Part shown: one piece after another, positions 2,713-52,848 of the stretch
Numbering within the stretch: the stretch's first letter is position 1
How the letters are laid out: each line of letters opens with the position of its first letter
DNA from: a virus
Taxonomy: Duplodnaviria > Caudoviricetes
Reading direction: 5' to 3' (one strand)
Virus record (IMG/VR): IMGVR_UViG_2974646641_000001
Coordinates: 9,788 to 73,787 of that record
Length of the DNA stretch: 64,000 nucleotides
Notes under the pieces: model-generated
What the model saw: the letters and a program-made list of their open reading frames with translations, nothing else
Database searches by the model: none
Told to the model about the DNA's origin: nothing
Translations under genes and position numbers: made by a program

Positions 2713-5700
2713 ATGAAACAGGCCGCATATGGTAGCTTAACATATAATGTTAATATTAACGATACCAAGGCTCAATCAAGCCTGCGTACGTTAAAAGGAG
2801 CTATCCGCTCCACAGGCCACGAATGGCGCTCTAACGCTTCTGCAATGCAAGCCGCTGGTGACAGTGCAAGTGCTCTGGAAGCCAAGATAACAGGACTTAA
2901 TAAAGAAATTGAGCTACAATCTGATTACAACAAGCGTTTAGCTGACGCCTTAAAACATGCCAATGCTCAAACTGACAAGGAAAAACTTGCGGTTATGCGC
3001 TGGACGAACGAATTAACCCGAAGTAATGCGGCGTTGAAACGGCGTCAAAGCGAATTGGCAAGTGCGCGTGCCGCTGAAATCAGATTCTCAACTGGTATCG
3101 ACAAGGCTAAAACCTCACATAAAGCTTATACCAGTGCGATTGAGGCAAACGAAAAGGCTTTACTAGCAGAGGGCAAAGAGGAACAAGCAAGCGCTAAACA
3201 TAAACAACTATTGGCGGCCAAGACATCTGCTTTAAAAGATGAACTCGGTCGTGAGGAAAAGGCATTCAAGGCGTTAAAATCTAGTGCTAGTTCATCTAAT
3301 GTTGATATTAACAAACAGTCTGCCGTTGTATCAAAAGCTCGCGAAGCTTATGCTAGGGCCCGTGAGGAACAGCGTAAGTATTCTACCGGCTTGCACAAGA
3401 TGGAACAGTATTCTAAGTCAACTGCGGAAATATCACAGTCGCTTGCTTCAAGATTGCGAGCGGAGGGTAAGGGCTACTCTGCAATGGCGGTAGAATTGAA
3501 GTCATTAATTAGTTCTCGCAAGGGCCTAATGGCTCAATACAAGGCCGAAGCGTCTGAGTTGGCGTTAGTCAAAAAACGTTCCGGCGAAACAAGTGCGGCT
3601 TATTCAACGCAAGCTAAGAAGGTCAACGAACTAGGTGCGAAAATTGGGGCAACAGAATCAAAAATCCGTTCTTTAAACAAGCGTGTTGGCCTATCTGGTA
3701 CAGCGATAAATTCATTTAGCGACAAAATTGGTGGTATGCAGAAAAAATATTCTGGTGTTGCCACTGCGATGTCTGCTGTTTCTCGTGGTACTGGTTATGC
3801 AACCTTAGGGCTTGCCGCTGTGACCAAGCAAGGCGTTTCGATGGCAACCTCTCTACAATCTTCTTTTGTGAAGACTAAAAACTTAATTGTTAAGTCTAAT
3901 ACAGAAGGTACTGGCGAGATTAATCGTAACCTTGCAAAGATGAAATCAAATGCTCAATCATATTCTAAGGAGTATGGATTGACACAACAAAAGATTGCCG
4001 ATGGCTATCAAGACTTAATCAAGCGTGGTTATAGTTCAGCACAAGCGTTAGGTTCAATGAAGACATTAGTTAAAGGTGCTATCGCCACTGGTGATGACTT
4101 TAATGATGTCACAGCCGTTTCTACACAGACTTTGGAATCATTCGGTCTAAGAGCTAAATCTACCGCTCAAATGGCTAAGAATACGTCTAAGGTTGTTAAC
4201 GAGATGGCCTACGCCGCCGATATGACGGCTACCGATTTCCAAAGCTTGGGTAAAGGTATGGAATATGTCGGTAACACGGCCCATCAAGCAGGGTTTAGTA
4301 TCTCCGAAACTGCTAGTGCCATGGGTATTTTATCGAACAACGGTTTGGAATCTGACAAAGCTGGTACTGGACTACGTAAGACGATTAACTCATTGGTATC
4401 TCCTACTGATAACGCTACTGGCGCTTTGAAGAAATTAGGGTTATCAACAAGTAGTTTTACAGATAAGAATGGTAAGATGAAGTCGATGTCGGAAATCTTC
4501 GGCATTTTGAATCGTCACATGAAGGGCTTATCTGGTCACGACCGTACTGATGTATTCCACGCAATCTTTGGCACAACTGGTCAGCAAGCCGGTGGTATCT
4601 TAACCGATAATTATAAATCACTTGGAAAACTTAATGACGAGGTTGCTAGGTCTGCGAAGAACGATTATATTGGTGGTTTATCTGCAAAGAACATGGAAAC
4701 TGCGCAGAATCAGTTTAACAAGTTTAAGGTTACTTTTCAAGCTTTAGAGATTGAGTTTGCAAACGTATTACTTCCATATTTAACCAAAGGCGCTAAGGCG
4801 CTGACTGGATTAATGGATAAGTTTGATAAGCTAAGTCCTTCCGCTAAAAAAGCCGCCGGAGCAACGCTTCTATTAGTTCCAGCAATTAGTGCTGTTACTG
4901 GTGTAATCGCCGCTTTCATTCGGAACTCAGGGACAATCGCGACTGTTATTTCTAAGTTGTTTAGCACGTCTAAGGTTAAAACTGCCAGTTCAAGTAAATC
5001 CGCCATAGCCGCAATTAACGAACAAACGGCCGCTGTTAAAGCTCTTTCTGCGGCATGGGGAGAAGCTGGACGAGCCGCCGGAGCAGAAGCAGAGGAAGCC
5101 GGTGCCGGAGTTGGCGGCGGTTCTAAAGGAAAAGCTGGAAAGACAGCTTCCGAAGTGGAGTCAGTTGGCACTCGCGAAGAATATAAGGCGGCTAAGAAGT
5201 CTGGTTCCAAGACATCTATTCTGAAACGTATGGCCAAGGGACAGACAACCACAGAAGACGCCGAAGCCATCTCATCAAGAGTTGGCAAAATTGGCACTAC
5301 TGGTTCTAAGCTAGGGAAAATAGCTAGAGGCACTGGTAGTGTTCTTAAACGTGTTCCATGGTTACAAACTGGGTTAGCCGCCATGAATCTTATCGGTATC
5401 AACAAGAAGAACGCCGGCCAGAAGGTTGGTTCCACTGCTGGTCAATTAGGTGGTACAATTGGTGGCGGTGCTATTGGTACTGGCCTTGGGGGCCTAATCG
5501 GTGGTGGACTCGGAACTTTCTTTGGCCCAGCAGGAACAGTCGCTGGTGCTAAGATTGGTTCTACTGTTGGTGGACTTGCTGGTAGCTTATTTGGTGGTTC
5601 TAAGGGCCAAGATTGGGGTGGACAATTAGGTAAGAAGATTCAGAAGTCTTTAAAGAACTTCAAAATGCCTAAGATGTCAACCGTCACTAAGTCAATCGGT

Positions 5701-8437: not shown

Positions 8438-10222
8438 ATGGCGTTAAAGAATGATGAATTCAGTATCGGTGGATTGAACAGCCGCTCCGACTTACATGTT
8501 ATTATGGGTATGGTGTTGCCACCGATTGCCCCAACAATGTCAGAGTTATCGACAGATATTCCCGCTAAATACGGTAACTATTTTGGCGGAATTGATTATA
8601 CATCAAAAACAATTAACATTCCAATTACGATAATGGCTCCACATAACTCACAATCATATATAGACTACGCGCAAACCTTGGCCGGGTTGTTATTAACAGA
8701 CAATCCAGACAACAACCAAGAATTACCATTGGTATTTGGTTTTCAACCAGATTTAACATATTGGGGGCACATCACTTCAATATCTGACCCGCAAGTGACA
8801 CAGGAAGGGTCTTGGGATTCGACATCAACTATCACATTCGTAATGTCTGACCCTAGAGCAACTATGCCACAGGTAGAAATGCCATTGAAAAACGGGTTAA
8901 ATGTTATAACCGTTGATGGAACTGCACAAACAGAACCAGTTATCCAAATTATTCCAAAAAGAGCGTTAAAATATGTTGGATATACTCTCAATGGCGGTAA
9001 CTATGGCGTCGGCCCAGAAGACCCAATTGACCAAGATAATGCCGTTCAAGAGTGGCAAAGTGTTATTGATGACCCCATTAACTCGATGGCTTTATGGAGT
9101 AATGGAGATGACGCATTATCACCAATAAAAACTGGGACTGCGCATGTTTTTCAAGGTAGTGCTACTATTAATGAAGACTCTGGCTCAATGATTGTTAAAA
9201 AAGTCAATGGCAAAAAGGATTATGGAACAATGCCATCTAGTTTGGCAGAAAATGATAATAAGTGGCTCGGCCCCGGCTATAAGTATAATGGTATGACTCA
9301 GTCTCTTTCGGAGTGGAGAATTAAAGCAGGAATTCATCATACTAAATGGCAAGGGGCACATCGTGGAAGGGCAATTGGTCAAATTCAACTATTATGGTTA
9401 AGCCCAAACGGAGAAACAATTGGCCATTTTGGAATTTCTGACCATGCTTATGGTGCTCGCCCAGAATGTTTTTTGCAGATTACACAGCCCGGTGGGAATT
9501 TTGACGTTGGAGATGGGACTCACAGGACTTTCTACTATGGTTATGGCCCCTCTGGGGCATTTAGCAATGATTCAGACCAATCAATTAAAATAAAAACAGG
9601 TACAAAAACAATCTCTAAGACAGTTTCCTCCCGTGCTAAGAACGGCAAAGTAACTAAGAAGACAATTAACGAAAAGGTAGATACCTACGTAACGGTTCAA
9701 AACAGGAGAGAGTACAGTGCGTTGTCCGACGCGTGGTTATTTTTAGATTTATCATATTATGATAATGAATATCACTATTCAATTACTCAACATAATTTAG
9801 CAAACGGTCAACCATATACAAATCCTAACAAGTATTTCATCGTCAGTTCTCAACAACCAGTAAAGACAGGCACGGCTTACGATACAGCATTAGGAGGTTT
9901 TGCGATATTCTTCGGAAAAAGACCAATCACGGAAGATGTTCAAAAAATAGACTATGATGAACCGTATATGTCGTTAACCCATTTGCAAGTATTTAAACAC
10001 AATAAGGTTGATAGTAAGGATACACCAACATATATTGCGAATGCAGGATCTGAAATTATTATGGATTCAGAAGCTCAAAGAACAACGGTTGATGGGAAAA
10101 TAGAATATCCTGTTTGGTCAACAAGTTATCCAAAACTAAAGCCGGGTGTTAACTCTCTTAATATTGTTGGAGATTTAGATGACGCAAAAATGGTTCTGAA
10201 ATATTTACCAAAAAAGCTTTAG
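8438..10222 (+). CDS. distal tail protein (Dit) with large internal insertion
   Basis: N-terminal FSIGGLNS...YFGGIDY; C-terminal YPKLKPGVNSL...YLPKKL; 594 aa. Confidence 0.8.
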   Translation: MALKNDEFSIGGLNSRSDLHVIMGMVLPPIAPTMSELSTDIPAKYGNYFGGIDYTSKTINIPITIMAPHNSQSYIDYAQTLAGLLLTDNPDNNQELPLVFGFQPDLTYWGHITSISDPQVTQEGSWDSTSTITFVMSDPRATMPQVEMPLKNGLNVITVDGTAQTEPVIQIIPKRALKYVGYTLNGGNYGVGPEDPIDQDNAVQEWQSVIDDPINSMALWSNGDDALSPIKTGTAHVFQGSATINEDSGSMIVKKVNGKKDYGTMPSSLAENDNKWLGPGYKYNGMTQSLSEWRIKAGIHHTKWQGAHRGRAIGQIQLLWLSPNGETIGHFGISDHAYGARPECFLQITQPGGNFDVGDGTHRTFYYGYGPSGAFSNDSDQSIKIKTGTKTISKTVSSRAKNGKVTKKTINEKVDTYVTVQNRREYSALSDAWLFLDLSYYDNEYHYSITQHNLANGQPYTNPNKYFIVSSQQPVKTGTAYDTALGGFAIFFGKRPITEDVQKIDYDEPYMSLTHLQVFKHNKVDSKDTPTYIANAGSEIIMDSEAQRTTVDGKIEYPVWSTSYPKLKPGVNSLNIVGDLDDAKMVLKYLPKKL

Positions 10223-39218: not shown

Positions 39219-39653
39219 TTATTCGCTCCAGTCGTATTTTATATTTTCGTGAATCTGAATATCATATTTTTTAGTTGTACCAAGAACCTTTGTTTTAAAG
39301 TCATGTTTCCTTACAACAACAACTTCAACAGGAATACCATATTGCTTGGCGAACAGCTTGAATACAATTCCAGCTCCACGGTCAATCGCATAAGGCGTGA
39401 ATCCGTTCTTTACGTCATATACGTGTTTAATAATTCCTTTATCTCGTACCACGAAATCTGGTCGGTAGGTAATACCGCGTAATGTGATTTTGTCGTTAAT
39501 AACGTTCTTTTCTAATAAATTAAACTTCTCATGGATAGTGATTGATTCAACATCAGAGTTCCTCAAAAACCTGTCATAGAAGTCATATTCTTTTTGAGAA
39601 TCAAACGTAATACCGTTTTCTTTTATTTTTTTACCATAATGTTGTAAACCCAA
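39219..39653 (-). CDS. DUF1064-like PD-(D/E)xK nuclease
   Basis: GITFDSQKE...Y; ITYRPDF; YDVKNG. Confidence 0.75.
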   Translation of the reverse strand: MGLQHYGKKIKENGITFDSQKEYDFYDRFLRNSDVESITIHEKFNLLEKNVINDKITLRGITYRPDFVVRDKGIIKHVYDVKNGFTPYAIDRGAGIVFKLFAKQYGIPVEVVVVRKHDFKTKVLGTTKKYDIQIHENIKYDWSE

Positions 39654-39654
39654 A

Positions 39655-39897
39655 TTACCAATCCTCCCGTTCTACCGTGTTCCATTTACTTGTCACGACA
39701 GACAGATGAGAACCTTTCTGTGGAACAACATCAGTGGTATTAACCATATCCCAGCATTCATCACGGCTTCCGATAAAGTCGAACCATTGCGTTATTAAAA
39801 TCGGAATATCATCACTAACTGACACTACCTGACACAAATCTGATAAACACAATTCTTTATCTCCAATGTGTACAGTATTATTCTTAATTTCTCTCAT
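39655..39897 (-). CDS. hypothetical protein
   Basis: 80 aa; RBS present. Confidence 0.55.
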   Translation of the reverse strand: MREIKNNTVHIGDKELCLSDLCQVVSVSDDIPILITQWFDFIGSRDECWDMVNTTDVVPQKGSHLSVVTSKWNTVEREDW

Positions 39898-39971
39898 TGA
39901 ATTTCAGTTCCTTTCCTTTAACTATAACTACATTATATAACAAATTGTGCTATTTGTCAATCTTTTTAAAA

Positions 39972-40154
39972 CTATTCTGGCAATATTTTTTCAACACTGC
40001 TTCGCTCGAATAACTTGGTTTCGGTTGAGTCAGTAATTGAAACAACTAACATATCGTCTGTTCGTTGAGCCATGTCAAAAACATTAATTAATGCGACCAC
40101 AACACCATAGATGTTTGTTCCTTTAATCTTAACAAAATCTCCGACAGAAAACAT
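39972..40154 (-). CDS. small SH3/KOW-like beta protein
   Basis: FSVGDFVKIK...GVVV pattern. Confidence 0.5.
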   Translation of the reverse strand: MFSVGDFVKIKGTNIYGVVVALINVFDMAQRTDDMLVVSITDSTETKLFERSSVEKILPE

Positions 40155-40157
40155 TGA

Positions 40158-40769
40158 TTAGTCCTCCTCATTTAGTAGTTTTTCAACTTTACGAGCTACG
40201 CTGTCGCCAAACTTGGTTCTGACGGATTCCGAGGCTTGGCTATTATAACAGGCGAACCAAAAGCCGTGATGTGATTTTCGTTTGCATTTGATAACATCGG
40301 TAATGTGTTGTTGATAGGCCCCAAGCTGTCTAGCCGCTTCCATTCGTGACGGGAAACATAAGATTTCACACGTTGTTAAATTGATTGCAATTACACGCTG
40401 TCCCCGTGACTTGCCATATTTTTCAACATATTGCTGATTGTAGAAACCATCGCACCACTCCAAATTATCAACCAGATTGTTGGCTGGATTGCAATCAATA
40501 TGATTAACTTGCGGTAGGCTGTCTGGATTATCAATAAAGCAACTTGCAACAACACGATGAACAAGCGCGTGAACTATTTTTCCGCCTGTCCTAAACGACA
40601 CATACATGTAACCATTTTTATGTCGGTGTTGCTTCAACACACGACCCTTAATCAATTGCTTGCGGCCGTCCTTACCTGTCACGTAGTGGTCGAGTGTCCT
40701 CACCCTACCTAAATTACTACCTTGCAACCACTCAATTTCTGGATAAGTCTTCCAAATTTCATTTTCCAT
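40158..40769 (-). CDS. NUMOD4-HNH-NUMOD1 homing endonuclease
   Basis: EIWKTYPE; LVHRVVA..VNHIDCNPANN..DNLEW; FPSRMEAARQL. Confidence 0.9.
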   Translation of the reverse strand: MENEIWKTYPEIEWLQGSNLGRVRTLDHYVTGKDGRKQLIKGRVLKQHRHKNGYMYVSFRTGGKIVHALVHRVVASCFIDNPDSLPQVNHIDCNPANNLVDNLEWCDGFYNQQYVEKYGKSRGQRVIAINLTTCEILCFPSRMEAARQLGAYQQHITDVIKCKRKSHHGFWFACYNSQASESVRTKFGDSVARKVEKLLNEED

Positions 40770-40864
40770 TCTTAAAATCCTCCTTAATTTATATTTCTTG
40801 ATATGATTCAATTGTAACATTGTCTGAATATTTTGTCAACCACTTCTTTGTAATTTGTTGTTAA

Positions 40865-41685
40865 TAAATAGAGAAATCATACGTGTTTCTATGTTTATGG
40901 AAAAATTTCTCGCCTTAGAAACCGGCTCTGTGTGCATATCAACTAATAACAACCAATCTGACGAACTGGTCTGTTTCTCAACGAGTTGGATTCAACGTGA
41001 CGTCTAGTATATGAAAAACACCTTAGTTTAGCTTAGCCCGGCACTCACATAATCGTGCCCCAACCATAAAAACCCAAAACCAATTAATATTTAGATTGAT
41101 TCTGGTTTGTTTAGTTAGATGTAACTTTAATTTAACACAAGACTAGAACCACCGCTGTTTGTAATGCGATTTGTTGAGCTGAACAGTCCTTTGCCTTAGC
41201 TCATATAAAAAAGTGCAGACTAATACACTGACTAAGAAACAAAGGATTGTGAGTTGTTCGCAACGCTGATAGTGTCGCCTCACGGGAGATTTATCCTTGA
41301 TTAGTATTTCAACTAATCACTAGCTTTCTACTACTACGTCATCTGTCCAAGTAGCTTAGCTTTCGCATATCTTCTAGTTTGCCTTACAGAGTGAGTTGAG
41401 TCTAATCGCCATATTAATAGTAAATAACAGAACTCATATCTGCCAGTGACTAGCTTAGTACGATTAGCGAACTTTGGCCCTTTTCCATTCCGTCTTTAGC
41501 ATATCCATTTCATAAGGACTTAGCTTTCATCATACGATTAGAGGCTTCGGAAATTTTACCCCTTGACGCAACCAGCACCACTTCAAATCTCCTAAAGCAA
41601 TACCGGCACTTACCTATTTGTTAGTAACGCAGTAGGTTTTCTGCGCTGAATATTTGGTGCTTATTAAGTTTTCGTTATTTTATGT
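40865..41685 (-). ncRNA. candidate large structured ncRNA (~820 nt; GOLLD/ROOL-like class possible)
   Basis: no ORF >=60 aa on either strand; leftward promoters; many stems; 7x CUAAG; 3x GAAAGCUA; 3' hairpin. Confidence 0.7.
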
Positions 41686-41689
41686 CTAT

Positions 41690-41719
41690 ATAATAGCACA
41701 TTTTTTTCAAGCTTGTCAA
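41690..41719 (-). promoter_or_regulatory. leftward promoter driving the ncRNA candidate
   Basis: TTGACA-18-TATTAT with extended TG. Confidence 0.75.
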
Positions 41720-41825
41720 TAGTTTTTACTAACTTTTTAAACTCTTTGTGCTACGGTATCATCTTATCACAATGGCCTTTTATTGTCAACTAAAAAAATA
41801 TTTTTATCTTTTTTGTAATTTACTA

Positions 41826-41856
41826 TTGACTTTGTGTTGGAATCATGCTATTATAT
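41826..41856 (+). promoter_or_regulatory. rightward promoter of the replication block
   Basis: TTGACT...TG-C-TATTAT, then AAAGGAGG RBS. Confidence 0.75.
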
Positions 41857-41885
41857 AGTCACATTCAAAAAAGGAGGAAATAGCG

Positions 41886-42170
41886 ATGGAAAGGCGAATC
41901 ATTATGAGTCCAGACGAATATGAGGAATTAGAAGCAGATTCAAACCGTCTTGAATACTTTATGTCGCTTTTTAAGGTTGATGGACAAGATGTAATTCTGA
42001 ATAAAACTTCAATTTTATCCCTAGTATTATCGAAGCAATTGGTCGATGAGGGCTACGAACGGGTAACAACTATCTATGGGAGTGGTAAGGCAATTGCACT
42101 AGAAGGATTTAAAGAAGACGGTCAGACTAAAGAAATGGGGTTGGACGATTATGAAATTAAAATTCAGTAA
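41886..42170 (+). CDS. hypothetical protein
   Basis: 94 aa; AAAGGAGG RBS. Confidence 0.65.
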   Translation: MERRIIMSPDEYEELEADSNRLEYFMSLFKVDGQDVILNKTSILSLVLSKQLVDEGYERVTTIYGSGKAIALEGFKEDGQTKEMGLDDYEIKIQ

Positions 42171-42648
42171 AGAAAGTGCGGTTCCAGAACACTATCAAAA
42201 AGATGGTCAGGACTTGTTGTCACACCTTGAACATATCTTACCGGAAGACGAAATGCGTGGCGCTTACCGTTTTAACGTTATGAAGTACGCTACCAGAGCT
42301 GGACGTAAAGATGACATTATTTTAGAACTTGACAAAATTACCCAGTATGCTGAACGCTGGAAGCAATTTGAACAGTCATTAAGAAAACAAGATGGTTTTG
42401 ACCGTATGCTTCAATTCAAACAACGTTATTACGATGGTCAGCAGATTGCAATGTATGTTGATGAGGCTGTACAAGATAGCGATACGTGTCGTTTAACCTT
42501 AGATGGCGTTCCGGCATATATTAATTCACTAAACTTTATTGTTTGCACTGACCAGCCTGTTTGCTATTCTAAGAAGCAATTGATGAAGTTCTTTAACACA
42601 TGCAGTAATGATAAGTTTGTTAATTTGGAAATCTCAATCAAAAAATAG
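42151..42648 (+). CDS. DUF3310-family protein with C-terminal extension
   Basis: PEHY...G...FNVMKY..RAGRK...ELDKI..Y. Confidence 0.7.
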   Translation: MKLKFSKESAVPEHYQKDGQDLLSHLEHILPEDEMRGAYRFNVMKYATRAGRKDDIILELDKITQYAERWKQFEQSLRKQDGFDRMLQFKQRYYDGQQIAMYVDEAVQDSDTCRLTLDGVPAYINSLNFIVCTDQPVCYSKKQLMKFFNTCSNDKFVNLEISIKK

Positions 42649-42666
42649 AAAGGACAGGAAATCAAT

Positions 42667-43374
42667 TTGTTAATCAATATTATGGCCTCGTTTGGGGCTG
42701 GCAAAAGCTCGTTGGTAAAAATTTTAGGTGGGGATTTGAATGCGAAAGAATATTTGGAAGACCCGTATGCTATTCCGATTCTAAAGGATTATTATTCTGG
42801 TGGTAAGGAAACTCGTAAAAAGTACGGATTCCCTTTGCAAATCGCATGGCTAGATGAACGTTTCTCACAACTGCGAGAAGCTGTCGTACAAGACCGTGCT
42901 GTCATGGATTCCAATTTGGTTGCAGATTCGATTGTCTACAAAGTTATTCACGACCGTGGCGAAACGACAGACCAAGAATATTTCTTATATTTGAAGTTAT
43001 TGCGCCATATGTTAGATTCAGTTAGTGCAGAACCAAAAGGACATTATCCAGACTTATATGTGTTCTTAGATATTTCCCCAGAGAATGAGATTAAGAGTAT
43101 CTTAGAACGCAATCGTGCAATGGAAACGACCGACCCGGCATTGATTGAATACTATCACTCAATTAATGATGGTTTTAAGAACTGGGCTGATTCTTACAGT
43201 GAAGCACCAATTGTTAGAATCGACAGAAACAAATATGACTTTGTGAACAGTACCGAAGATAGGATTGTTGTTTTAGACACAATTGAAAAAGCGTTGGTCG
43301 ATTTAGGTTACTTGACTGATTCAGAATTTGACGAAATTAAAAATACACGAGAGAAGCGAGGAGTTTTAAAATAA
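42667..43374 (+). CDS. deoxynucleoside kinase (dAK/dGK family)
   Basis: ASFGAGKSSL; YLEDP; LQI..L..RF; PDLYVFLD; RI..RNRAME. Confidence 0.9.
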   Translation: MLINIMASFGAGKSSLVKILGGDLNAKEYLEDPYAIPILKDYYSGGKETRKKYGFPLQIAWLDERFSQLREAVVQDRAVMDSNLVADSIVYKVIHDRGETTDQEYFLYLKLLRHMLDSVSAEPKGHYPDLYVFLDISPENEIKSILERNRAMETTDPALIEYYHSINDGFKNWADSYSEAPIVRIDRNKYDFVNSTEDRIVVLDTIEKALVDLGYLTDSEFDEIKNTREKRGVLK

Positions 43375-45726: not shown

Positions 45727-46764
45727 ATGAAATATTATAAGAGTGATTTAAACAAAGTTATTGATTATTATGGTTTTGATTATCGGGAGGGAAATGGAAA
45801 TTGTCAATTAAGAACTTACTGTCACCACCACGATGGTGACGGAAACTACAAACTATATGCTTATTTTGATGACGATGAATCAGTTCATCTCTATTGTTAT
45901 TCGAGTTGTGGTTCTATGGACTTGGTCGGCTTCATCATGCACTACAAAGATTGCAATTACTACACAGCCCAGAATGAAATCGACATGATTGTTGGCAGGC
46001 GCCATCAAGTCGGTTTTGTGGCACAGGAGTTATATAATCCAGCAAAGCAACTTGAAAAGAGGCATGAGAATAAAAGCTCTGCTGACATAAAAAGGTTGAG
46101 TGCCGAGATTTTAAGTTCTTATAGCAATTATGCCTACGAGGGCTGGGTGAATGAGGGGATTAGCACTGAAACGCAAGCGAAGTTCGGCATTCGGTTCTCA
46201 ATCCCTGATAATAAAGTGATAATTCCGCAAGTCGATAAAGATGGTGAATTGATTGGGGTTCGTGGTCGTAGCTTAGACCAGTATGAAGTTGAAACTTACG
46301 GCAAGTATCGGCCAGTGACATTCAGAGGCCAGACGCTATCGTTCCCGACCAGCTTGAACTGGTATGGCCTATACCAGAACAAAGAAATAATCATGAAGAC
46401 GAAACAGGTGATTATCTTTGAATCTGAAAAGTCGGTTATGCAGTTAGATACGATGATGAACGGACACGGTAATGGTTTGGCACTTTCTGGTTCAAGTATT
46501 TCTGATTGGCAGATAAGAGAGCTGATGAATCTGGATATAAATGAGGTTGTTGTTGGTCTTGATAAAGACTATAAAGATGAGGCCGGTTATAATCTTCATG
46601 CCAACTTGATTGTGAAGATGTTTAGCAAACTACTACTTAGATTCAATGTGACAGTTATATTTGATGATGTGGACGGTTTGCTTGGCTATAAGGACAGCCC
46701 CACTGATTGTGGTAAAGAAACATTTCTAAAACTAATGAAAACTAGGAAGGTAATGAGTTTATGA
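45727..46764 (+). CDS. DNA primase (Zn-binding + TOPRIM)
   Basis: CHH...CYSSC; IIPQ.D..G..IGVRGR; IFESEKS; GLDKD. Confidence 0.88.
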   Translation: MKYYKSDLNKVIDYYGFDYREGNGNCQLRTYCHHHDGDGNYKLYAYFDDDESVHLYCYSSCGSMDLVGFIMHYKDCNYYTAQNEIDMIVGRRHQVGFVAQELYNPAKQLEKRHENKSSADIKRLSAEILSSYSNYAYEGWVNEGISTETQAKFGIRFSIPDNKVIIPQVDKDGELIGVRGRSLDQYEVETYGKYRPVTFRGQTLSFPTSLNWYGLYQNKEIIMKTKQVIIFESEKSVMQLDTMMNGHGNGLALSGSSISDWQIRELMNLDINEVVVGLDKDYKDEAGYNLHANLIVKMFSKLLLRFNVTVIFDDVDGLLGYKDSPTDCGKETFLKLMKTRKVMSL

Positions 46765-48503
46765 GAATTGTAAAAAGTGACGAAGATTTAGCGAACGACC
46801 AGATTGACGGGTTCAATATTAATATTTTGCCAAAGACTGTGGGGAATATGGTCGAGCAAGCGATTGAATATCGAAAACATCACGTCTGGGACACGAGTGA
46901 TGGCTCTATTGATGTTGATGATTTGCCGTATAAGTCCGAGTTGAACAGGATAGCTGATGACTTACACGAAAACAACCGTAGAATCGCTATCCTAGTCGAT
47001 GTCGATGTGGACGGTTATTGTTCGTCAGCCATCATCTATAAGGCGTTGAAAGCCGTTAACGAGAAGCTGGATATTGATACTTTGCTTCCGAATGCTAAGT
47101 TGCACGGTATCAAAGCCAACATTGACTTGGTCAAGAAGGATTATGATTATCTATTCTTGCCTGATAGTTCAGCTAACGACTTGCACACGATTGCAGAGCT
47201 GGAAAAGAGCGGAACAAAATGCGTTGTTATTGACCACCATATTATTGAACAGGAACCGTATCTATTGGACAACCCCGATAAGTTCTTGATTTGTAGCAAT
47301 CAATATCAAGATTCAGAACTAGACCGTAACTTGACTGGTGCGGGTATGGCATTACTGGTTACTAAACTCTGGAAGCAGAAGTACGATATTGAGCTTAATT
47401 ATGACTTGGCGGCCTTGGGACAGATTGCAGATATGAGTAATCTGGACGATAAAGACATTTGGGAAATTGTTCAAAAAGGGTTAGCGAATATGAACAGCAA
47501 AATGTTGACGACTTTCTTTGAAGATGACCTAGAACTTCTCACGGTTAAACACTTGCAATTTAGTTTAATACCCCGTATCAATGCTGTGTCACGAATTGGT
47601 GAACACGAAGACCGCGAACTTATCTTTGACGCTTTGATTGACCAAGATGAATTAAAACCCGTGAGTGTTCGTCATAAAGGACAAGACGGTAAATTTCACA
47701 CGGAAACCGTCAAAATGGACGTTTACAGCCGTGCAAAACGAACACTGGATAAAGTAAAAGGACGTCAAGATAGACTGGTTAAAAAGGCTCTAAAGGACGT
47801 TGAGTTTCTCACTAACAGAAATGATAATTTCAACGTAGCTGTACTAGACAAGAAATACGACAAAGGGATTTCGGGTTTAGTCGCGAACAAAATGCTCGGC
47901 AATACTAAGCAACCAACATTGGTAGTAAAACGAAACGGTGAGCGCCTAGACGGTTCTGGACGCTTTCCAGTGACAATTAATGGATTGCAACTGTTACAAG
48001 GCGTTAATGCTTTCGCCGCAGGTCATGAGCAGGCATTCGGTGTTGGTTTTAAGGCTAACCAGTTTGACGATGTTTCAGAAGCGATTGGAATAGCCGTCAA
48101 TGACGCTCCTGATTATGTTTATCGTGTTGATGAAGCGTTAGTTAACGAATTGCCAAGTGTAGCAGAAATTAGAGCAATCTATCAAAGTTCCAAAACGTTC
48201 CGTGGCGCAAAAGACGAGCCACTTATAGCTGTGCTCGGACTAAAGGTTGAGAAACGAAACATCACATTGAAGAATAATTGGCTAAAAATCACATTAGGAG
48301 ATATTATAGTTAACGACTTTAATGCGACAGACGACATTAAACGCTACGTTGAGTCTGGCTTCGGCGACAAATGTTTTAGTTTTGTTTGTTCGGCAGGGTT
48401 TAATTTCTGGACTGGGCGACCGATTCCGACATTAACTGTTGAGAAATTAGTTAAAAGTGATGGTGTTGAGGTCGGGGTTACTAAGGATAACTTCATCTTC
48501 TAA
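46761..48503 (+). CDS. recJ: RecJ-like DHH ssDNA exonuclease
   Basis: DVDVDG, IDHH, LAALGQIADM, PRINAVSR, GH..AFG. Confidence 0.9.
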   Translation: MRIVKSDEDLANDQIDGFNINILPKTVGNMVEQAIEYRKHHVWDTSDGSIDVDDLPYKSELNRIADDLHENNRRIAILVDVDVDGYCSSAIIYKALKAVNEKLDIDTLLPNAKLHGIKANIDLVKKDYDYLFLPDSSANDLHTIAELEKSGTKCVVIDHHIIEQEPYLLDNPDKFLICSNQYQDSELDRNLTGAGMALLVTKLWKQKYDIELNYDLAALGQIADMSNLDDKDIWEIVQKGLANMNSKMLTTFFEDDLELLTVKHLQFSLIPRINAVSRIGEHEDRELIFDALIDQDELKPVSVRHKGQDGKFHTETVKMDVYSRAKRTLDKVKGRQDRLVKKALKDVEFLTNRNDNFNVAVLDKKYDKGISGLVANKMLGNTKQPTLVVKRNGERLDGSGRFPVTINGLQLLQGVNAFAAGHEQAFGVGFKANQFDDVSEAIGIAVNDAPDYVYRVDEALVNELPSVAEIRAIYQSSKTFRGAKDEPLIAVLGLKVEKRNITLKNNWLKITLGDIIVNDFNATDDIKRYVESGFGDKCFSFVCSAGFNFWTGRPIPTLTVEKLVKSDGVEVGVTKDNFIF

Positions 48504-51932: not shown

Positions 51933-52033
51933 TCGCTAAAAATAACGAATAAAATGGTAATTTTACCAAGAAAACAGTTGACAAAAGCGTGCCAGTTTGG
52001 TACGCTGTACATACAATAAAGGAGGAATGTGAT

Positions 52034-52465
52034 ATGGATATTGGTTTTGCGGCTGGTACTAAGGTGCTAATCAAAAAAGGACAAAAGAATATTGAGAGTG
52101 TCACGACCAGAGATGAAGTCTTGACAGCCAACGGCACCTATCGGAAAGTGTCACAAAAGATGACTGACAAGTCGGACGATATTTATGAACTGAAAATTCT
52201 GTTTCAACCTGACACTAAAGTCACTGGAAACCAACGCTACTGTATTAGGCGAAAAATGGAAGATGGTTATTCACTGTCGAGGTGGGTGCCAGTCAATGAC
52301 GTTAATGTTGGTGATTTGGTAATTGTCTATGTGTTGGACGACACAGCCCCTGTTCATAGACCAGTTAAAGGTATTAAAAAACTGAACGAGGGGCAAAAAG
52401 TTTATAGCTTAAAAACCAATGAAAAACACAGCTTTACAGCCAATGGCGCTGTGGTTCATGATTAA
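52034..52465 (+). CDS. stand-alone Hint (intein-like) domain protein with degenerate catalytic residues
   Basis: GFAAGTKV...G..NIE.V...DEVLT; WVPV.DV.VGD; VYSL....HSFTANGAVVHD-stop. Confidence 0.8.
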   Translation: MDIGFAAGTKVLIKKGQKNIESVTTRDEVLTANGTYRKVSQKMTDKSDDIYELKILFQPDTKVTGNQRYCIRRKMEDGYSLSRWVPVNDVNVGDLVIVYVLDDTAPVHRPVKGIKKLNEGQKVYSLKTNEKHSFTANGAVVHD

Positions 52466-52476
52466 AGGAGGAAATA

Positions 52477-52848
52477 ATGGATAATTTAAAGTTTCGTGCA
52501 TGGATTAAAAAGGCCGATGGTACTTGCGACAAAGTTAGCCCTATGACAATTCAACAGATGTTACGGCAAGAAACGGCACTTGGATTAGTGTCTTTAGGGG
52601 TAACGGATTTAGAGCAATCAACTAACATTAAAGATAAGAACGGAGAAATTATTTTTGACGGTGACATTGTTCATTTATCAACTCACGATGGATATAAACG
52701 AACTGGTCAGGTTGAGGTTGAAAATGGCCGAGTTAGGATTGTTAGCGAATTAGATTCTTATTCTTTCAGCCGAACTGGTTCCGAAAGTGATACCTTGGAA
52801 GTCGTTGGTAATGTACACGAGGACAAAGAATTATTGGAGAAGGAATAA
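52477..52848 (+). CDS. YopX-family protein
   Basis: LKFRAW; QST..KDKNG..IFDGDI; EVVGNVHED.ELLE. Confidence 0.85.
   Translation: MDNLKFRAWIKKADGTCDKVSPMTIQQMLRQETALGLVSLGVTDLEQSTNIKDKNGEIIFDGDIVHLSTHDGYKRTGQVEVENGRVRIVSELDSYSFSRTGSESDTLEVVGNVHEDKELLEKE

Follow-up and report, generated by a model that had tools for sequence, protein, structure and literature searches.

A large structured RNA predicted in lytic Lactobacillus phages, distinct from ROOL and GOLLD

To our knowledge, only few bacterial or phage RNAs of more than 500 nucleotides (nt) with elaborate conserved folds have been described, namely OLE, GOLLD, ROOL, HEARO, and raiA, and we know of no phage-borne giant RNA with an established function. 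RNA-only homo-oligomeric assembly is a feature of ROOL, GOLLD, and OLE, with RNA-only cages recently demonstrated for ROOL and GOLLD, and GOLLD was reportedly introduced by Weinberg and colleagues in 2009. Here, we describe a candidate for a further class, an RNA gene on the minus strand of a lytic Lactobacillus plantarum phage, which is contained in a 73.8-kb virus record of the IMG/VR database (IMGVR_UViG_2974646641_000001). The stretch of DNA that was analyzed, here called the window, comprises 64,000 nt of this record (positions 9,788 to 73,787), and coordinates refer to the window unless another locus is named. A first-pass annotation, made from the sequence of the window alone, had proposed that positions 40865-41685 harbor an RNA of about 820 nt that is free of open reading frames (ORFs), is driven by its own promoters, is highly structured, and belongs either to the GOLLD/ROOL classes or to a new class.

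ROOL is represented in Rfam as family RF03087 (Weinberg et al. 2017, PMC5737381) and has been studied by cryo-electron microscopy (Kretsch et al. 2025, PMC12286853). Its monomers use tetraloop-receptor contacts and pseudoknots (PMC12990946), and both ROOL and GOLLD form RNA-only multimers via kissing loops, loop-bulge pseudoknots, and minor-groove contacts (PMC12286853, PMC12990946). GOLLD is expressed during phage lysis, and it is composed of a 3' region with universal conservation and of a variable 5' region (PMC12286853).

A conserved fold of the minus-strand transcript

The family comprises 15 distinct sequences, which stem from eight cultured Lactobacillus phages, six metagenome contigs, and one IMG/VR contig; the metagenome and IMG/VR homologues were retrieved by pattern scans with sequence signatures. 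In the cultured phages the homologues are unannotated. Identity to the window is 89% for Satyr and Maenad, 68-76% for Gut-P1, SA-C12, Nyseid, Lenus, and ATCC 8014-B2 (B2 in the following), and 74% for LP65. The former seven phages are members of the Tybeckvirinae, LP65 is a 131-kb phage of the unrelated family Herelleviridae.

As had been proposed, no ORF of at least 60 amino acids (aa) is present on either strand of the roughly 820 nt at 40865-41685, and the overlapping ORFs encode just 38, 50, and 46 aa. Insertions and deletions among the homologues are mostly 1 nt (120 cases) or 2 nt (47 cases) long, compared to 13 of 3 nt. None of the frames is conserved, and in the LP65 homologue stop-free stretches reach at most 39 codons. 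From these sequence comparisons, a coding role of the locus is excluded.

The fold was analyzed with an alignment of 13 cores (A2, 565 columns). RNAalifold predicted 97 pairs, among which 36 show compensatory changes, and a covariation scan of column pairs added a hairpin, P2, and two pseudoknots, so that the combined model contains 110 pairs in 19 helices, the two pseudoknots included. The model was compared with shuffled alignments and with controls in which the pairing was slid. A standard pair is formed in 96.2% of the cells, compared to 85.6% in the shuffles and 35-46% in the slid controls. Changes on both sides were seen for 46 pairs, compared to 29±2.6 in the shuffles, none of which reached 46 in 500 trials, and 2-12 in the slid controls. 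The covariation score was 0.383, compared to 0.176 for the shuffles and at most 0.083 for the slid controls. The model includes 183 G·U cells versus 19 A·C cells and thus agrees with the minus-strand transcript and with neither its complement nor the DNA; by this comparison the minus strand is the one from which the RNA is read. When the sequence was folded alone, z values of -2.4 for the minus strand and -2.0 for the plus strand were obtained, which by themselves are uninformative, the real support being comparative. No fewer than 199 of the 565 columns are invariant in the 13 sequences, and 103 of these 199 are unpaired. Covariation among homologues had been suggested as a check by the first-pass annotation, and its outcome argues that a real large structured RNA, backed by covariation, is encoded at the locus; in our judgement it is very probably a genuine RNA gene of a new family. 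The core and its elements are as follows:

41149-41685, minus strand: conserved structured core of about 535 nt with 19 helices and 110 pairs (from alignment A2 and the pair counts)
41629-41644, minus strand: helix 1, a hairpin with 2 covarying pairs
41606-41613, minus strand: closing helix (helix 2), 5' strand, partner of 41161-41167, 91% paired
41161-41167, minus strand: closing helix (helix 2), 3' strand, partner of 41606-41613
41573-41605, minus strand: P2 hairpin (helix 3) with 6 covarying pairs, its loop forms pseudoknot 1
41584-41592, minus strand: pseudoknot 1 (helix 4), 5' strand, the P2 loop, 5 covarying pairs, 97% paired
41285-41293, minus strand: pseudoknot 1, 3' strand, about 300 nt away from the 5' strand
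41540-41563, minus strand: helix 6, a hairpin with 3 covarying pairs
41549-41552 (loop of helix 6) with 41488-41491, minus strand: pseudoknot 2 (helix 7), 4 of 4 pairs covarying, 100% paired
41499-41524, minus strand: hairpin framed by GCUAAG...UAUGC (helices 9 and 10), holds the conserved CUAAG no. 1
41388-41480, minus strand: central domain with nested helices 11-14; the highly conserved AGGCARACUA comes next
41322-41361, minus strand: extended hairpin (helices 15 and 16), a GAAA-capped hairpin competes on its 5' side
41298-41319, minus strand: helix 17, a hairpin with UGAAAU loop, 6 of 8 pairs covary
41187-41246, minus strand: helix 19, closes a variable insert; its 3' strand, AGGCAAAG, is invariant across the aligned homologues

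The best-supported elements are the two pseudoknots, the hairpin at 41298-41319, and the central domain at 41388-41480, for which a covariance model (R1) yielded 111-132 bits on family members. The loop of helix 1 carries the block AACCUAC; 12 homologues cover this block, and 11 of them conserve it. The closing helix is a long-range helix that spans the whole core, and none of its pairs is changed on both sides. Three of the stems that had been picked out by eye in the first-pass annotation covary, i.e., 41298-41319 (helix 17), 41627-41646 (helix 1), and 41040-41059 downstream of the core. A fourth one, gagcu/agcuc at 41176-41202, did not hold up: the homologues do not conserve it, and its positions overlap with the better-supported helix at 41187-41246, with which it competes. 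At 41322-41368 (A2 columns 334-345 and 379-382), a GAAA-capped hairpin and a pairing of AGCU with AGCU are mutually exclusive and both covary, and A2 columns 342 and 343 each covary with two partners.

The enrichment of short motifs at the window locus that had been noticed at first pass was recovered. CUAAG occurs seven times, with count and positions exactly as annotated, compared to 1.28±1.07 in 2000 dinucleotide shuffles, none of which reached seven. GAAAGCUA occurs three times, compared to 0.03 expected, and the single UACAU is indeed found at 41119-41123. The 11-nt GAAA tetraloop receptor, which is known from group I and group II introns and RNase P, has the form CCUAAG...UAUGG. GCUAAG (41519-41524) and UAUGC (41499-41503) frame a covarying 3-bp hairpin and are placed as in this receptor, and from their sequence we regard them as 11-nt-receptor-like. 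They differ from it in that the outer C-G pair is G-C or A-U, and Gut-P1, SA-C12, and Nyseid deviate further (CUAAC, CUAAA). Invariant GAAA loops occur elsewhere in the RNA, and a contact between a GAAA loop and the CUAAG element is a plausible hypothesis from the sequence.

Comparison with known RNAs and distribution

The first-pass annotation had suggested a search of Rfam for GOLLD and ROOL. Positions 40600-42000 and seven homologous loci were compared with the Rfam 15 library (4227 families, ROOL and GOLLD included), and no match was found at gathering score or at E<=10. As a positive control, the same search detected ROOL with 140.6 bits on an LP65-like metagenome contig (L026:4913-5478), and a targeted search detected it with 128.4 bits at positions 52015-52589 of LP65 (AY682195.1, locus L036), both well above the ROOL gathering score of 99.1 bits. 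Because the new RNA has no Rfam match, while true ROOLs are found in phages that carry it, it is assigned on sequence and covariance grounds to a family that is distinct from ROOL and GOLLD and absent from Rfam. Of the two options left open at first pass, a new class is thus supported and membership in GOLLD or ROOL refuted. LP65 and L026 contain both RNAs at a distance of 1.5-3 kb, and there the new RNA is transcribed divergently from ROOL and a transfer RNA (tRNA) array. The ROOL search was negative for the phage of the window, Satyr, Gut-P1, and SA-C12, and the 64-kb window does not contain a tRNA. The ROOLs of LP65 and L026 lie in or beside the tRNA arrays; the LP65 record lists the tRNAs, yet no ROOL, and the strand of the LP65 tRNAs is plus in the region table versus minus by Infernal.

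The new RNA resembles ROOL in size, phage context, and complexity. Non-coding RNAs of about 0.55-0.6 kb from Lactobacillales phages are involved in both cases, and for neither of them a protein partner or a function is known. ROOL has many helices, multistem junctions, and pseudoknots, and our model of the new RNA predicts 19 helices, several junctions, and two pseudoknots. In contrast, the two share no detectable similarity in sequence or by covariance model, and the new RNA is a separately transcribed second gene in LP65 and L026. ROOL usually resides in prophages or phages, often beside tRNA arrays, whereas the new RNA was seen in virulent phages only, with none in bacterial genomes or prophages. 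In the Tybeckvirinae loci it has no tRNA as a neighbor, and it is near a tRNA array (1.5-3 kb, divergent) only in LP65 and L026. In addition, the 199 invariant columns in 13 sequences contrast with the 10 highly conserved nucleotides described for ROOL. Like GOLLD, the new RNA is large, phage-associated, and bipartite, one part being variable or dispensable, but the polarity is reversed: the 5' core is conserved, and the 3' module is missing in Lenus and two further loci (L032, L035). Unlike GOLLD, it has no tRNA embedded, and no Rfam match was obtained. Likewise, no group I or group II intron of Rfam matched at E<=10, and a promoter, not an exon, is located upstream. With more than 500 nt, no ORF, covarying helices including pseudoknots, and its own transcription signals, the RNA has the properties of the large "ornate" non-coding RNAs, a kind that implies no shared ancestry. 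No description of it was found in the genome papers of its phages, the ROOL paper, or the recent literature on ornate RNAs, a comparison that did not extend to the virus csRNA catalogue with 10,006 models (PMC10690425).

A 27-nt signature that is common to all members had no true copy in 185,579 representative bacterial and archaeal genomes in a pattern scan. As far as this signature reaches, the RNA thus seems to be confined to virulent phages and absent from prophages; one of its carriers, Gut-P1, has been described as virulent (PMC10269749). Several candidates from the pattern scans were rejected. Matches to the signature in three Peptoniphilus genomes and five metagenome contigs represent one near-identical coding sequence of an ABC-type ATPase, which scores just 15-19 bits with covariance model R1 and is a chance match. 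Two matches to the 5' signature (L039, L041) had no nhmmer match at E<0.2 and read as coding sequence, and five matches to the 3' signature (L042-L046) also had no nhmmer match at this threshold. Eight extra IMG/VR contigs retrieved with the first pattern were chance matches as well; that pattern fixed a spacer which most members lack.

The identities of the cores form two clades that ignore phage taxonomy. The Lenus core is 83% identical to that of LP65, compared to 71% to those of SA-C12 and Nyseid, which belong to the same genus as Lenus. The B2 core is 84% identical to that of LP65, compared to only 63% to that of Gut-P1, which shares its genus with B2. Because core identities cut across taxonomy in this way, the sequences indicate a past exchange of the RNA gene between two phage lineages that are unrelated and have hosts in common.

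Transcription signals, 3' module, and neighboring genes

Outside of the core, the following features were found:

41761-41789, minus strand: distal promoter, TTGACA-17-TAAGAT with TG, sigma-A-type, consensus match only (10/12)
41690-41719, minus strand: proximal promoter, TTGACA-18-TGnTATTAT, sigma-A-type with near-consensus extended -10, consensus match 11/12
41060-41148, minus strand: linker, poorly conserved, A/C-rich and then U/G-rich, with a hairpin and a U-rich run
40892-41059, minus strand: separable 3' module of about 170 nt, including the hairpins 41040-41059 and 40912-40926
40811-40839, minus strand: the next gene's own promoter, TTGACA-17-TACAAT, from the promoter scan
40158-40820, minus strand: next gene, an I-HmuI-like HNH/NUMOD homing endonuclease, an optional neighbor

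Both leftward promoters of the first-pass annotation exist as consensus matches. In the proximal one, the TTGACA box is at 41719-41714, and an 18-nt spacer separates it from the TGnTATTAT that ends at 41690, from which a transcription start at about 41683-41685 is predicted. Its equivalent is present directly 5' of the core in Satyr, Lenus, and LP65, i.e., in three lineages. The distal promoter is 70 nt further upstream, and in the alignment it is also seen in Satyr. A 16-nt block, TGCTATTATATAGNCA, which covers the extended -10 and the transcription start at 41683-41698, has an inverted repeat copy (repeat I3) at 41846-41861. One copy is thus located at the leftward RNA promoter and the other at the divergent rightward promoter at 41826-41854; the leftward and the rightward unit probably share one promoter class.

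The 3' hairpin that had been annotated at 40870-40890 is weak (-5.9 kcal/mol), and it is not called by the terminator scan, which was negative for all of 40000-42500. In Satyr, a hairpin of -20 kcal/mol and a run of seven U follow the 3' module. Promoter scans of the window, Satyr, Lenus, and LP65 detected a fresh promoter 3' of the RNA, and for Gut-P1, SA-C12, and Nyseid the alignment shows promoter-like -10 blocks at this place. Judged from its sequence, the hairpin with the U-rich run in the linker may act as a partial terminator. The length of the RNA is given as about 0.55-0.8 kb. Contigs from the RNA libraries of three metatranscriptomes map to the core at 41261-41628, while little else of the region 39500-43000 is covered. 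This is a weak hint only, and the uncovered flanks are uninformative because the runs had been picked using this very stretch.

Of the about 820 nt that had been called highly structured, the 5' part of about 535 nt is demonstrably structured, while the 3' part of about 250 nt turned out to be a separable module with weak structural support. RNAalifold predicted only 2 pairs in this part, and the covariation scan added one hairpin. The 3' module is conserved in sequence, and only its hairpins at 41040-41059 and 40912-40926 covary. In the three loci in which it is absent (Lenus, L032, L035), the core is directly followed by small hairpins and the next promoter. Core types and types of the 3' module are freely combined across the genomes; for example, the 3' module of the window is nearly identical to that of L025, though the cores are just 71% identical.

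In Semele, Bacchae, and Iacchus, which are Harbinvirus phages, the module is present while the core is missing. There it ends a different conserved ORF-free region, which is syntenic with the LP65 locus. Besides a promoter-like site of its own, this gap of 1.2-1.35 kb (L037:1540-2775, Semele 46539-47774; L038:1506-2863, Iacchus) contains about 0.86 kb with a conservation of 97-98% in Lpa804, Bacchae, Dionysus, Iacchus, and Bromius, and of 75% over 367 nt in LpeD. It has no Rfam match, and it was rejected as a family member because neither nhmmer nor the covariance model revealed similarity to the core. The gap may contain another large RNA with a different 5' body. In Semele and Iacchus, a GC-richer conserved segment is located just before pnuC (L037:2640-2775 and the end of the L038 gap). 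It contains the complementary blocks CCGCC... and ...GACGG as well as GTGCG...CGGCAC, it had no Rfam match at E<=1, and it may be an attenuator or a riboswitch-like leader of the nicotinamide adenine dinucleotide (NAD) salvage operon.

The RNA locus is situated between divergent arms with genes for DnaB, a deoxynucleoside kinase, and AAA_24 and DUF1064 proteins, i.e., replication and nucleotide metabolism. The genes downstream of the RNA vary by genome and encode an HNH endonuclease, unrelated small ORFs, or, in the LP65 lineage, PnuC and NAD salvage proteins. The LP65-type and the Tybeckvirinae loci have no ORF within about 3 kb in common, and Pfam and PHROGs scans of the neighboring genes revealed no candidate for a partner protein. 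The HNH gene follows the RNA in the window, Gut-P1, SA-C12, Nyseid, and L040 (coordinates of the HNH genes outside the window: L002:2276-2920 and 3922-4557, L003:3919-4557, L004:2913-3551, and L040 from about 3250), and is absent in Satyr, Lenus, B2, and LP65. Among phages that are otherwise collinear, some thus have HNH genes beside the RNA and others do not, and in Gut-P1 the RNA is flanked by one on either side, a pattern that fits free-standing homing endonucleases which use the conserved RNA gene as target. The mosaic exchange may be explained by such targeting, and it is plausible that the HNH endonucleases serve as a vehicle for exchange of the RNA gene during co-infection. Two hypothetical proteins annotated in SA-C12 (SAC12_087 and SAC12_088, L003:3060-3266 and 3286-3471) lie inside the RNA gene on opposite strands without a conserved frame, and they are probably mis-annotations.

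Proposed role and alternative explanations

The reading that we prefer is a stand-alone gene for a large structured RNA that acts in trans, and as a whole we regard it as probable. The host RNA polymerase would transcribe the RNA leftward from one or two near-consensus promoters, and because these are at the divergence point of the replication and nucleotide-metabolism arms, the RNA would probably be made early and in quantity. The first 535 nt or so would fold into a compact body, the ends of which are joined by the long-range closing helix. Inside of this helix, about 17 further helices, the two long-range pseudoknots, and the receptor-like GCUAAG/UAUGC element would be formed, and a loose linker and the optional 3' module would follow. 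Because the RNA was exchanged without a neighboring protein gene, it would act in trans, either by itself or on a component of the host, as a pre-folded particle like ROOL or GOLLD and without a phage-specific protein. That the RNA is a trans-acting particle directed at the host has about an even chance in our view. Formation of homo-oligomers, suggested by analogy, is a tentative idea that we consider unlikely.

Several observations weigh against this reading. The covariation was derived from just 13-15 sequences in two main clades, several helices (2, 11, and 18) have no change on both sides, and the region with two mutually exclusive covarying pairings indicates that the model is not final. 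The 3' third of the RNA has little structural support. The window has no convincing terminator by the terminator scan, so that read-through into the HNH gene is possible, and the RNA-library contigs may stem from DNA and cannot prove transcription. In the L025 homologue a stop-free stretch of 123 codons is present, which is not conserved in the others. The proposed function is drawn from analogy to ROOL and GOLLD in size, phage context, and complexity.

The most serious competitor, though an improbable one, treats the RNA as a structured leader of the leftward early operon, one that acts in cis and would control read-through, stability, or translation downstream. The RNA is indeed the promoter-proximal element of the leftward arm, and the weak 3' hairpin and the negative terminator scan are in accord with a leader. 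However, the downstream genes differ between genomes and each has a fresh promoter right after the RNA, a strong terminator follows the RNA in Satyr, no protein gene moves with the RNA between lineages, and 535 nt with two pseudoknots are far larger than known leaders. Somewhat less probable still is a part of the replication origin, i.e., a primer or R-loop transcript like ColE1 RNA II or the T4 origin transcripts. This would agree with the position between the divergent arms, with the minimum of the cumulative GC skew near 41.7 kb, and, for LP65-type and Harbinvirus phages, with the presence of a DNA helicase two genes away from the syntenic gap. Yet the skew has its minimum where the gene orientation switches, so that an origin is not needed to explain it, and no iterons or repeated boxes were found in or beside the locus. 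The RNA is also common to Tybeckvirinae and Herelleviridae at loci without a shared neighboring gene, and its conserved pseudoknots and junctions speak for a free, folded RNA and against an RNA-DNA hybrid.

The optional HNH gene, together with the 103 unpaired columns among the 199 invariant ones, as in catalytic RNAs, could be taken for signs of a ribozyme or of an intron-like mobile element that has decayed to a remnant and is tied to the homing endonuclease. This is very unlikely, since there are no flanking exons and no interrupted ORF, no group I/II intron or ribozyme family matched at E<=10, and the HNH gene is missing in four of the phages and thus an optional neighbor, which probably exploits a conserved target. 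That the RNA is a very divergent ROOL or GOLLD is hardly credible. Size, phage context, Lactobacillales hosts, and the distance of about 3 kb to the tRNA array in LP65 are similar, but the Rfam scans at E<=10 were empty while ROOL was found with 128-141 bits elsewhere in the same phages, and LP65 would have to hold two ROOL genes without detectable mutual similarity. Small proteins missed by ORF calling, to which the two annotated proteins inside the SA-C12 stretch and the stop-free stretch of L025 might point, have a negligible probability: no frame is conserved, 1-nt and 2-nt indels predominate, LP65 has no more than 39 stop-free codons, and the conservation is explained by compensatory base changes.

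A bolder version of the preferred reading, a trans-acting RNA, is that the RNA represents a third unrelated class of giant phage RNA that self-assembles into a symmetric multimer early in infection. We deem this doubtful. If it were true, the exclusive pairings around the palindromic AGCU blocks at 41322-41325 and 41358-41361 would be an intermolecular contact or a switch from monomer to oligomer, and LP65 would make two different RNA particles per infected cell.

The new RNA would add a further class to the giant phage RNAs of the large ornate kind. It is present in cultured, genetically tractable lytic phages whose host is easy to handle in the laboratory, i.e., Satyr, Maenad, Lenus, Nyseid, ATCC 8014-B2, Gut-P1, SA-C12, and LP65, and natural variants are at hand: the core alone in Lenus, the core with the 3' module, the 3' module behind another 5' region in Harbinvirus, and the new RNA together with ROOL in LP65. 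With such variants, deletion, swap, and structural experiments on the function of a giant phage RNA are directly feasible. That the RNA moved between unrelated phages with no protein partner alongside is an argument for a target in the host.

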